The notes beneath the pieces were generated by a model. That model was not told the DNA's origin. It was given only the letters and a program-made list of their open reading frames with translations, and did not search any database. A stretch of DNA of 64,000 bases from Chrysomallon squamiferum (taxonomy: Eukaryota; Animalia; Mollusca). The position numbers were made by a program, and so were the translations under genes. This document shows positions 9,506 to 49,205 of this stretch, piece by piece; position 1 is the stretch's first letter; each line of letters begins with the position of its first letter. The stretch is from the NCBI GenBank assembly GCA_012295275.1, contig CM022668.1, positions 10,354,001 to 10,418,000 of the forward strand. The letters run 5' to 3'.

Positions 9506-12500
9506 CAATCTTCACCACACAACACACCATAGTGACTGGAATCACACACTGAAATACAATTACAAAATTATTATTATAAAACATTTCTAAACTAAGTATC
9601 CATAACAATGATATTAAATTAACCTACCCATTTTCCAACTGCGGACAGATTTTCTTAAACTGAATATCATGATACTATACAGCAAAATAGTTTACCTAGA
9701 TTCTGAATAACATACGGACACACACAAACACACACACACACACACATTTATTTTGAATATTAATATTTATCTATTAATATTTGCTTAATGACTTAAATAA
9801 TTATAACTCTTAACAGTCAATGTCATATTAATAAGCTGTTTTTCATGATTAGTATTTTCTGTATGATACCATTACACGAGGACCCAGTCCAGTTAGTCTC
9901 ACATCCGTCAGAACATTTTCCAGTAGTGTAATTACAGGGATGTGTTTTACAATGACAAAACTCAGTGCAGTGTTCAGCATACGTTCCAGAGTCACACACT
10001 GAAAAGTAAACGTAAATTGTATAATCGTAAGAATTAATACATATTGCTCTTTAATAAATTATTTTAAAAAATATGAAAAGATAACACTTTCTTATAGATG
10101 TTCTTGTGTCACATATTTAAAATGAAGTTAAACAAAACGACTGAAAAATAATAAAGAAATAGGATTATAATAACGATTCCGATGATAGTGATGATGATGT
10201 GTGTGTGTGTGTGCGTGCGTGCTAGCATACGTATGCAAATGAATCTACATATTTATGTGTGTGTACGAGTGGTTCTAAATGTGTCTACTAAATGTTTATA
10301 CATGTCCTTTCAAAGTCTACATACCAAAAATTTGAACTTCACAAAAGTCCATTGAAAAGTCGCCTTTGTTTCTGTAAAGTGTGATGTATCTAGCATTCTG
10401 ATTACAGGTCAGATGTGTTATATTTGGACTGTGTATATCTGTTTTACCACACAAGTGTCCTTTGTTTATCTGGTTTGACTCCTTAGAGCTGTAGAGTTCA
10501 ACACCATCTCTGCGATCAGTGACTAAAAAGTAATAAAAATATGTATATCTCTCTATCTATATCTGTATCTAAACACACACACAATTTTGTAAACATACAT
10601 GCATATAGACATGTACACTAATTAATCAATTAAAAACAACTGCAACAATACAGCAATCGACACGTTGGCATTATGTTAAATATAGATTCCAAAGAAGCCG
10701 TTATAAGAAATAACGAAATAAGTGGTCACTATGGAATCCGAAAATAAGATATGACAGCAGAATTATCTAAACTTTAATGTAACATTTTGTTCCTATTTTC
10801 ATGTACAAATAATTTGATCTGTGCATGTGTTTCTATGTTTCCTTCCTTGAAGAACATAATTAAAATAGTAAAGTATATATTTATTTTCTTTGTGTATTGT
10901 TTTTATACACCTTATTTATTTAAAGACAACTAAAATGAGTAAATGATATAAAAATGAGTGTTATTATTATTATATATAAAACATTTACACAACAGCTACT
11001 ACTACAACTACCACGACAACTATTATTACTATTATGATGATATTAAGCTCCTTTCTTTAGAACGTATCTAAAATCAAGACTAGTAAAAAGTATAAAATAA
11101 TTTATGAAGGTAAGTAGAGATAACGGAAACTTACATCCAGTTCTGAAGTAAATGATTACTTCATGTATGAAATAAAAATCTCCCAGGTCTACCTCCCACC
11201 AGCTGGGTTGGTTACTGACATCTGTTAGAATACAGTAAAAATCAGTAGCCCTGGTGTCACCATCTACTGCCAGTGAAGAATTTCGATACAGGGTTGAATA
11301 ATAGGAACTTTGTGTGGTCTTCTTACCAAACGCAGTGTTTTCTAGAATAAATAATTTAATTAATTAATTAATAAAACTAAGTTATAATGATTCACATATG
11401 TTACTACTACTACTACTACTACTGCTACTACTACTACTAATACTACTACTTTTACTACTACTAGTACTACTACTACTAGTACTACTGCTACTACTACTGG
11501 TTCTTCTACAACAGTTACTACTATTGGTACTGATTTTACTAGAATTACTAGATCCTGTAACATAATATATATTACACTTACTAAAACACAAGCTATACAC
11601 ACTCATACACATAAACACACACACAGACACATAAACACACACACATACACACATACACTCATATGGAAATAAATTAAGCAACACAAGTTCACGGACCTAT
11701 AATTCTGTAATGATTTATTGATATATAGCATCTGGCTGAATAGCAGGACTTTCTTGGAGATATTTAATGTACGTGCAAACACAAACATTGCACGTTAAAT
11801 GTCATACCCTGAACAGTCTTGAAATCTGGTTTATAATGATTACATTATCATATTCTCTCCTGTCAACTTGGATTGAATATTCAGTACTATAACTGTCACT
11901 CTATACTGTAAATTGTCAGAGGCTACAAGGTATCACAGTATTGGCATCAGAAATGCGGGAATGTTTCTCTGACAAACTGGACATCTACTTGGGCGCAGTA
12001 TTCCCATCCTTTCCAGACATTTGAACAAACACAGGGCTGTCGTTCAAATGACTCAATCGCATCTTTAAAACAACAGTGGTTACCATGGGGAGCAATTTAC
12101 AGGTTAGGGGGTAGAAGACCTATCAACGTATAAAACTGTTCCCAGATCATAAAGCCGTGAGATTTGCCTGGTTTCATCAAACTGTTCATTGGAACATTGC
12201 ATCAAGACAAAGGGTTCACTTTTCCGATGAGACTGTTTCTTCCTGTGTAATGTGGATAGTTGTACACGTGTCGGGAGACGAAGGATAACAGCTATGGCTT
12301 CCCACAGTGTCCAAGATACAGTTTTGTTTTGGTGAGATCTGTCATGGTGTGGATATGTATTTAGATGGGTTGGAATATGGAGCTTATCACCATTTGTGAA
12401 GCTTAAGTGGGCCTTGGTACCAACAGCAGATCCTTCATAAAGTTGTTATTCCTCATTTTCATAATCATCCTTTAGCCACAAGACTCATCTTCACGCACGA

Positions 12501-47100: not shown

Positions 47101-49205
47101 TATATATTCTCCAAATTCTTTCACTCATATTATATATTGTAAACGCAATAAAATAAGCATGCAGATACAAACTTACAAATTTACATATTGAGATTCAGTT
47201 AAGCGCCAGAAAATGACGTAAATATCTACTTATTCTTTCCAAATATTTGTTTGTGTAGATTTGTATATATGGGTGTATATGTTACTTTAATTTACAACGA
47301 TGAGTTCATATAATGTTCAGAATTTGCCTCTGTTTGTTTACAATGAATGTTTAATGACGCCCAAGCATGAAACTCAGATCGGCTATTGGGATTCAGAGAG
47401 AGTGTGGTTTGTTTAAATTACTGTTTATTACTGTAAGGTTTTCAAAACTTTACGTTTCATTGATAAATTAACAATCCCTCTGCATTAATGTACAACTGTG
47501 TGAGTGTCTGGTTGTGTTTTTGAATATATGTGATGTCTCAGTGTATAAGTAAACTTACTATCATAATGGAAGTGAACAGTTATATTTTGTATGTAGTATT
47601 CTGTTCCAAGATCCACCTGCCACCAAGTGTAGGGTTCTCCAGTACTTGTAAGTATACAATATTTCCCATTCCTCCCTTGTGACAGATTACTATCTACAGC
47701 CAGAGAAGAGTTGTGATATTCTTTACTATAATACGAACTCTGTTTGGTTGTTTTTTCAAGAGCAACATTTCCTGAAACGTCTGTTAAAATAAATAAAAAT
47801 AAACACACGAAACAAATACATAATTAAAAATAAATAGAAATAATGATATAACGTCTCATTCTGATTTTGTGGAAATCAGGTCGAAAACAAATCTGTATAA
47901 GTTAAAAACAAATTATACAAACACACAGACAAACAAACTTTTACACAAATACGTACATATGCATAAACATATATGTAATAATATTAGCAAATACGTGCAG
48001 ACACACAAAAAATATCTGAAATATTTTTTACCAGTTGTACATTTATAGTCCTGACCATCCGTTTATGCAAGAATTATGGCCGCCATTACATCCTGTGACG
48101 TCATCAGAATTATTAATATTACAGTCTCACGTTTGGTTACAGTTCAGTCCATAGGTCCCTGACATACATTTACCTAGTAATGGAGTGCAGCAGCAACACC
48201 AACGACAACAACAATCAGAATATTATACTGCGTAATGGAATTTTCTCGTCGTTGCTACTACTGCAATTCTGCAGCTTGACCAATAATACTACTACTTCTT
48301 CTTTTACTACTTCTAATATTCTTGTAATACTATTGCTACAGCTACTAGTATTACTATTTCTACGGCTGCTACTACTGTACTACGACTACAACTACTACTG
48401 TGTCCACTACTACTGCTGGTACTGTTGCTGTTATTATTATCAAACATTACTACTGCTACCACCGCTAAAGCAGATACATTTCAACAGCTTCTGCTGGAAT
48501 TACTACAACTATTATTACTACTACAACTACCACGATTATTACTACTATTATTATTGTTAAAATTACTGTCACTCGAAGATGATGAGGTATATTAACGAAA
48601 CCTAATATATTAAAAAAACTATTTGTACCAGATAAGACACTTTAAAGTTGAGATTCTTAAACCCCATGATAAAATACGATGGAATCCTAGTTTTATAAAC
48701 CAATTCGCACTTACTTTGTATTACTAAACATTTCTGAGTCTTATTCGTAAACCACTTCAAATAATGAACTTACAACAAGATAAGAGAGAGTTGTTCAACG
48801 TGTATTTTTATTTTATTTATTTACTTAGTTGTAACTATATATGTATATTTTTAAATATAATGTATATAATTAAATATATACATACCTATATCTATATATC
48901 TATGTGTCTGGTATATAATGTATGTAAGTGTGTGCATGTATAAATGCACACACATATATAAAATTACCTGACACGTATTCAGTCTTGAAGTAAATGCATA
49001 ACACAAAAAAAACAAGTAAATCCAACCAGTAGATCAAAAAAAGAAGAAAACCAACAACAAACATAACAAAACAAAAATCTTGATATAATTATTTTTAAAA
49101 TAAATAAAAGCATAAATAAAACAACTAACCTTTGCCTGATACATATTCAAAGTTAATATAAACGCCCAACGCAGAAATAAAGAAGAAAATCCAAAACTTT
49201 AACAT
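41126..49205 (-). pseudogene. G4: A-type F-type lectin/EGF receptor gene with lesions and a short tail
   Basis: Exons: signal peptide 49205-49130; EGF 48173-48032 (TGA at 48129-48127 and a +1 insertion); lectin 47771-47559 and 46888-46688 (or to 46679); truncated EGF ~46148-46026 (TAG at 46047-46045); EGF 45265-45125, 44366-44220, 43721-43578, 43135-42992; TM 42124-42028; tail 41276-41126. Confidence 0.82.
48968..49026 (-). pseudogene. Degenerate second copy of the signal-peptide exon in G4 intron 1
   Basis: WIYL...LCIYFKTEYVSG|gtaatt with no ATG and a 1-nt deletion. Confidence 0.65.

Follow-up and report, generated by a model that had tools for sequence, protein, structure and literature searches.

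In Biomphalaria snails, receptors of SR-F-like subgroup 1B (MEGF-GBD) are encoded by clustered genes that combine a signal peptide, a fucolectin/GBD signature, EGF repeats and a transmembrane (TM) segment. The accessible portions of two reports describe copy-number variation and extracellular diversity in this cluster and link it to parasite resistance (PMC13712769, PMC12297450), and an excerpt of a third records induction of MEGF genes in resistant lines (PMC13619432). Fucolectin and MEGF families are expanded in the vent snail Gigantopelta aegis as well, although a fused architecture, variable loops or a signaling tail are not described in the available part of that source (PMC7895826). The F-type lectin fold, with variability in its complementarity-determining region (CDR) loops, occurs in eel fucolectins (the agglutinin AAA and A. 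japonica eFL1-7) and in oyster bindin; the available sections of one study describe five CDR loops surrounding the pocket, name residues for CDR1, CDR2 and CDR4, and report positive selection on the pocket of bindin repeats together with isoforms that do not carry the basic triad (PMC5712786). A further point of reference is the pair MEGF10 and Draper, which, as far as the available text goes, signal via an ITAM (immunoreceptor tyrosine-based activation motif), for which Syk or Shark is the reader (PMC8092387). Here, we analyze a 64-kb stretch of the Chrysomallon squamiferum genome (contig CM022668.1; hereafter the window), AT-rich animal DNA of 30.6% GC with numerous microsatellites, which carries a minus-strand tandem array of predicted single-pass receptor genes (G1 to G5) that join an F-type lectin head to an EGF stalk.

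By architecture the array belongs with the snail SR-F-like 1B receptors: its genes have the signal peptide, the fucolectin/GBD signature, EGF repeats, a single TM segment and the clustering. This comparison is one of descriptions and not of sequences, and no Biomphalaria-named protein appeared among the matches of our protein-similarity searches. The tails differ, since those of Biomphalaria are described as small and without signatures or as tandem phosphatases, and the term ITAM occurs 0 times in the main texts of PMC13712769 and PMC12297450, whereas an ITAM-like motif closes the tails of G2 and G3. The closest proteins found were all MEGF10-like proteins of G. aegis. These relatives, annotated as MEGF10/11-like, draper-like or fucolectin-4-like (P0004-P0017, P0172-P0185), share with the window genes the domain order, variable loops, mostly non-His heads and a YExL-x9-YxxI-TG end, but their lectin domains are just 50-58% identical to those of the window. 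The gene model of one, P0173, places a tyrosine-phosphatase piece ahead of the F-type lectin domain and is possibly a fused model adjoining a phosphatase-tailed relative. In a head tree that excluded P0004 (a near-copy) and P0014 (an isoform), the heads of G1-G3 formed their own clade with support of 100/100. An older lineage for the G4 head, suggested by its best BLAST match P0010, was not adopted; the approximately unbiased test does not reject a single clade (p=0.19). Clusters of mollusc proteins with this domain mix were common in the ESM Atlas when a G. aegis relative was the query. Of 49 loci from a metagenome scan, none exceeded 55% identity, and they did not enter the analysis.

The likeness to Draper, CED-1 and MEGF10 consists of the EGF-repeat ectodomain, the single TM segment and the ITAM-type tail, the last as in Draper and MEGF10. 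In contrast, Draper and CED-1 carry an EMI domain, the family carries NPxY and MEGF10 is described as invariant in the passages available to us (PMC8092387), whereas the window genes are multicopy, have a variable lectin-fold tip and contain no NPxY. Pfam scans gave no match to the EMI family, and the N-terminus consists of signal peptide, EGF-like exon and lectin. As judged from their sequences, the encoded proteins would behave as receptors of the Draper type whose lectin-fold tip varies, and are not MEGF10 orthologs. Nor are the eel and bindin lectins described as EGF-stalked membrane receptors in the available text (PMC5712786), as the window genes are predicted to be. Our searches of the open-access literature turned up no report of an ITAM-tailed F-lectin-EGF receptor or of gene conversion in such arrays; supplements to the G. 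aegis and Biomphalaria studies may describe the architecture.

We favor, at a probability of roughly 0.6, a reading in which variable loops are kept on lectin-fold heads, stalk and framework exons are kept alike by likely gene conversion, and G2 and G3 signal through their ITAM-like tails. The predicted head would sit at the tip of the EGF stalk and retain old differences in its ligand-facing loops, and conversion would keep many stalk and framework exons alike. Selection may preserve different loops against this homogenization, giving a "peak of divergence" and not a large excess of replacements. G2 and G3 would then signal much as Draper/MEGF10 do, in response to ligands other than terminal fucose, with a possible role in microbe recognition or engulfment.

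Several comparisons place the head in the F-type lectin fold. Pfam families PF00754/PF22633 match all four pieces encoded by the first lectin exon (L1), the L1 profile matches the F-type lectin structures 3cqo, 2j22 and 1k12, and the relative P0008 aligns with AAA over the whole domain. A model of P0008 (pLDDT, the predicted local distance difference test score, of 84.7), standing in for the window's own spliced head, superposes on 1k12 with Z 19.8 and a root-mean-square deviation of 2.0 over 143 residues. Modeling P0007 at full length gave a poor result (pLDDT 62.5), with netrins and F-type lectins mixed in its Foldseek list; the representative-protein search was dominated by multi-domain proteins, and five of its matches were used only to deepen the folding alignment. 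The structural cysteines of the fold are kept, both those aligned with AAA 50/146 and a second disulfide pair, and the cation motif h2DGx reads AVDGD in G1-G3 and a deviant AVDSN in G4. A preliminary description of this DNA had equated the variable segments with the AAA loops around the sugar pocket, and the profile matches, the AAA alignment and the superposition bear this out. The two loops other than CDR1, CDR2 and CDR4 would be CDR3 and CDR5.

The fucose site itself is altered. In the alignment, Leu replaces the equivalent of His52 in the basic triad (His52, Arg79, Arg86, with the RXD motif) in each of the four heads, which also lack the vicinal CDR4 cysteines. Both triad arginines are retained in G1-G3, while G4 has His in place of Arg79 and a shorter loop; the Asp of RXD is kept in G2 and G4 only. 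Eel isoforms differ in retaining His52 and CDR4, which is variable in the window heads. Among 20 G. aegis proteins the His52 position is non-His in 12 and His in six, with two not parsed, and since non-His heads are thus the majority there, the change appears old and retained. These residues suggest that binding of fucose in the manner of AAA is unlikely and has probably been lost: the domain would belong to the F-type fold without being a canonical fucose lectin. The "sugar pocket" specificity proposed earlier is therefore doubtful for fucose, and predicting glycans from what the domain is called may lead to error.

Variability among the heads was compared for G1-G3, the three that can be aligned; the five loops were delimited by anchor motifs that the AAA alignment supplied, chosen after the data had been seen. 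All 16 loop strings reported earlier for G1/G2/G3/G4 are present on the minus strand: YYSTLYR/YYPPQYQ/YYPTLYR/YYSKEYH after QSS, GDTRATDFY/GDTRTTHFH/GDTRTADFY/SNLSQGRNGKY after AVD, DVSNQPS/DTYKKPT/DVFNSFT/STGEPYT after CILT and, once exon 2 is joined, RTGFTDRR/RTDSPVRR/RTGYIDRR/HYDKVRMN at the exon junction. Variable codons make up 20 of 41 in the loops, 21 of 93 in the lectin framework and 11 of 89 in the pair of EGF exons flanking the lectin (by Fisher's test, p=0.004 against the framework and p=1.5e-5 against the EGF exons); with G2 left out, the loop excess over the framework is 10/41 to 11/93 (p=0.075). The loop represented by DVFNSFT in G3 differs at six of its seven codons. Hence the framework, at 23% variable codons, is not nearly fixed as had been stated, and near-fixity of the EGF exons holds for E1, E2, E7 and E8 but not for E3 (9/47 residues differ) or E4 (3-8/46). 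Likewise, the three differences in 43 residues counted between G1 and G2 in the next EGF exon comprise two substitutions and an in-frame TGA in G2. Differences in the heads cluster in the predicted ligand-facing loops, with no sign of a scatter over the model.

Seventeen heads from G. aegis provided an independent check (P0004 and P0014 dropped; P0182 lacks the anchor). Loop entropy there is 2.13 bits against 0.91 for the framework (p=1.5e-10), and the variable sites of the window coincide with those of G. aegis (p=2.7e-5).

The stalk exons show the opposite pattern: their silent sites are homogenized, yet the introns between them have diverged by ~25%. Over all 20 pairs of stalk exons, 16 of 278 four-fold sites differ, as against 718 of 3552 flanking columns; the corresponding figures are 3/53 and 184/704 for G3-G4, and 2/61 and 154/695 for G2-G3. 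For the recent pair G4-G5 they are 3/53 and 34/788, and because four-fold and intron divergence agree in this pair, exon silent sites are not simply slow. Four-fold differences amount to 2/50 in the second lectin exon (L2) and 12/46 in the EGF-like exon E0 that precedes the head. Private changes in four stalk exons (576 columns) number 13 in G3, 12 in G4 and 14 in G5, compared with 308, 22 and 12 in the introns flanking the same exons (892 columns). The E8 sequence of G4 differs by 2 nt from that of G3, as opposed to 9 nt from that of G5, the duplicate of G4. At the residue level, E7-E8 of G3 and G4 are 96.8% identical, next to 53% for their exon-1 heads, and since each is at most 54% identical to G. 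aegis, these modules are able to change. A similar contrast is found at the protein level among five G. aegis paralogs (tails 76-91%, heads 52-73%), and 25 cross-gene pairs among 58 EGF modules there are identical at 85% or more. Gene conversion confined to exons is likely the simplest cause of this homogenization, which in part also accounts for the contrast in variability between heads and EGF exons. On clusters of this kind, dN/dS scans (replacement over silent rates) and short-read mapping can be misled by such exon-bounded homogenization.

An assembly artefact, in which collapsed or mis-polished copies or uncollapsed haplotypes would have produced the near-identical stalk exons, the stop in G2 and the G4/G5 pair, is highly improbable. 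There is a gap inside the array, and G4 and G5 differ by 1-6.5% per 400 columns, as such errors might leave; however, the homogenized exons retain private differences and are embedded in distinct introns, and the contrast between heads and bodies recurs in G. aegis proteins from another assembly.

Diversifying selection on ligand specificity had been proposed from a hand count of 19 replacement and four silent-only codons between G1 and G2 in L1. The count is right (over 68 full codons), but replacement sites outnumber silent ones ~3.6:1 and it is therefore no evidence for dN>dS; exon-wide dN/dS in L1 is 0.67-0.79 (0.70 for G1 against G2). We fitted codon models with our own code to three sequences (G1-G3, the G2 stop codon excluded). 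With a shared silent rate, loop dN/dS was 1.57 (p=0.11 against 1; interval ~0.9-2.7), and with a silent rate of their own, which the data prefer (p=0.004), it was 0.68 (interval ~0.35-1.45). The silent rate varies by partition (likelihood ratio 13.5, df 3, p=0.004), reaching 4.6 times the framework rate in the loops, 3.1 times in EGF0 and 1.0 times in EGF1, and pairwise loop pN/pS lies at 0.64-0.81. The expectation of dN/dS above 1 at the loop sites thus largely fails: no fixed-partition estimate is significantly above 1.

Site models leave more room for such selection, in which loop replacements would be fixed faster than neutral and yield new glycan specificities, possibly alongside conversion. 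Comparison of M8 with M8a gave p=0.011 for the lectin and 0.018 for the head, and of M1a with M2a p=0.039 and 0.062; seven of the eight sites with posterior above 0.5 fall in loops, four of them in the DVFNSFT-position loop. The signal is gone when two or three bases of a codon may change together (p=0.48, 0.54), under a model better by ~6 log units. Conversion is known to mislead such tests, and local peaks of divergence mark selection acting against it (PMC3924837, in the portion available). Yet when older loops were simulated without positive selection, just 8 of 180 runs gave a statistic as high as the one observed, so selection is not refuted, and the bindin repeats offer a precedent. We regard positive selection in the loops as possible, faster-than-neutral change as borderline, and this account as a whole as tentative and less probable than preservation of old loop differences against conversion.

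Relaxed constraint, under which surface loops would be tolerant as in any beta-sandwich, the fucose site dead, the copies decaying and loop variation mostly neutral, seems to us unlikely. The Leu at the His52 position is compatible with it, as are the dN/dS intervals that include 1, the weaker loop excess without G2, and the state of G2 itself, which has a stop, a branch twice the length of that of G1 or G3 and private changes at four positions near-invariant in G. aegis, including an Arg aligned with a salt-bridge residue of AAA. But non-His heads prevail in G. aegis too; the disulfide cysteines, calcium motif and tail motifs have been retained in different genera; and variation is lower in surface segments outside the five loops (3/8 and 2/5, compared with 6/7 for the top loop, all small numbers).

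The tails of G2 and G3 end in an identical ITAM-like motif, recognized by its pattern, YEKL-x9-YEKI followed by TGI-stop, and contain several YxN motifs; NPxY was found in none of the tails of G2, G3 and nine G. aegis proteins. Of 20 G. aegis proteins, 11 have an ITAM-like C-terminus, and a search with one such tail returned eight proteins, all from G. aegis. By analogy with MEGF10 and Draper, G2 and G3 may engage Syk/Src-type signaling. The terminal TGI/TGV presumably fits a class I PDZ ligand. In G4 and G5 the motif is out of frame and degraded, with a frameshift in the G4 tail that brings a stop ahead of the ITAM tyrosine motif; these genes are either tail-less decoys or decaying copies. 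Eels and oysters already provide examples of loop variability among F-type lectin paralogs, and in Biomphalaria the candidates for parasite resistance include clustered fucolectin-EGF-TM genes; a conserved ITAM-like tail would offer such receptors a concrete signaling route. A bolder extension, which we consider quite doubtful, would make these a paired, variable set of innate snail receptors akin to the Siglec or KIR clusters of vertebrates, with non-fucose heads placed on shared stalks by exon-bounded conversion or shuffling and tails that are activating (ITAM; G2, G3), truncated as decoys (G4, G5) or, as in Biomphalaria, phosphatases; they would help vent snails to tell symbionts from other microbes.

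A number of points weigh against preserved loop differences on receptors with converted stalks and ITAM signaling. Some of the intron divergence comes from misaligned AT-rich columns, and the compared pairs are non-independent; E5 is not homogenized at four-fold sites (3/10 and 3/9). Loop dS is inflated by multi-hit codons, and in amino-acid-invariant codons the silent excess of the loops is not significant (4/21 against 4/72 in the framework, p=0.074). The rarity with which older loops alone gave the site-model signal in simulation means that true positive selection may contribute. The ITAM-like spacer has nine residues, and NPxY is absent. Finally, only three heads could be aligned, and every gene departs from the canonical form: the gap truncates G1, a stop interrupts G2, the open frame of G3 depends on a GC donor, and G4/G5 are without the ITAM. 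A search of sequencing runs gave three RNA runs from a single study at a word share of 0.06-0.07, which we do not count as evidence of expression.

Coordinates of the array genes and associated features in the window
Feature	Position	Strand	Remarks
G1	9506..14304	-	signal peptide, EGF0, lectin exons 11341-11135 and 10522-10325, EGF1, part of EGF2
G2	15534..23504	-	G3-like plan, five stalk EGF exons, ITAM-like tail; L1 22208-22002
G2 ITAM-like motif	near 15596-15546	-	identical to that of G3
G3	27093..39070	-	733 aa open frame, provided splicing uses the GC donor that follows the TM exon
G3 signal peptide	39070-39001	-	
G3 EGF0	37550-37410	-	
G3 lectin exons	37208-37002, 35898-35701	-	
G3 loop DVFNSFT	37069..37089	-	most variable loop; follows the His52-equivalent position
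G3 eight EGF exons	35602-28970	-	
G3 TM exon	28071-27972	-	
G3 tail exon	27441-27093	-	
G3 ITAM-like motif	27105..27155	-	YEKL-x9-YEKI, then TGI-stop
G4	41126..49205	-	divergent lectin head (exons 47771-47559, 46888-46679); TM; tail
G5	3414..9305	-	recent G4 duplicate, visible from the 3' part of lectin exon 2; tail frameshift as in G4
Sixth gene, signal-peptide exon	1634..1702	-	gene body would fall past the left edge of the window
Orphan ITAM-end copy of tail exon	25243..25346	-	between G3 and G2; probably left over from a deleted gene
Assembly gap	9306..9505		200 N, between G1 and G5

The genes share one plan of phase-1 exons: signal peptide, E0, L1 and L2, four to eight stalk EGF exons across the array, a TM exon and a tail exon. 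Stalk length changes as symmetric EGF exons are gained or lost, and the array undergoes birth-and-death turnover. G1 is truncated by the gap and cannot be traced beyond it; the exons to the left of the gap are not its continuation but belong to a G4-like fifth gene, the head of which the gap hides. This gene, G5, is 92.7% identical to G4 across 7.4 kb, beginning inside lectin exon 2. In G2, E3 is duplicated and E5-E8 are missing except for a relic of E6, and the TGA (20502-20500) lies in the first stalk EGF exon, which is symmetric and skippable. A 24-bp tandem repeat at 17536-17610, derived from the end of E6, is a relic of the deleted E5-E8 block. Upstream of G2, a duplication at a 1.7-kb offset (23661-26479) carries the orphan tail fragment. 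In G4, E0 and E3 are broken and four EGF exons are open, giving a 440 aa open frame if both broken exons are skipped.

Several splice sites depart from the common pattern. The donor of the G3 TM exon (27971-27970) is GC, whereas G2, G4 and G5 have GT; read-through at this donor would yield a short tail in which the ITAM-like motif is missing. The usual donor of lectin exon 2 is lost in G4 (46688-46679) and G5 (9157-9148), with an in-frame GT nine bases downstream, and a second, degenerate signal-peptide exon lies in intron 1 of G4 (49026-48968).

The G3 intron between E7 and E8 holds a 33-bp minisatellite (29408-30848; 43.7 copies, 95% match) that is open for ~500 codons on both strands and Thr/Ser-rich in one minus frame. 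A mucin exon derived from it was considered and rejected: by eye, no phase-matching splice sites were seen for the Thr/Ser frame, and the inspected G. aegis relatives join these EGF modules directly. At 51000-64000 there are nested tandem duplications of 2-4.6 kb (55402-59330 matches 60010-64000 at 95%), and this region gave no match from G. aegis proteins, Rfam or, for three open reading frames (ORFs), Pfam. Two degenerate frames, at ~730-1180 (minus strand) and ~11900-12770 (plus strand), resemble remnants of Tc1/mariner transposases, judging by eye from their motifs; Pfam returned nothing for two short ORFs of these candidates. The second frame sits within the G1 intron between E0 and L1.

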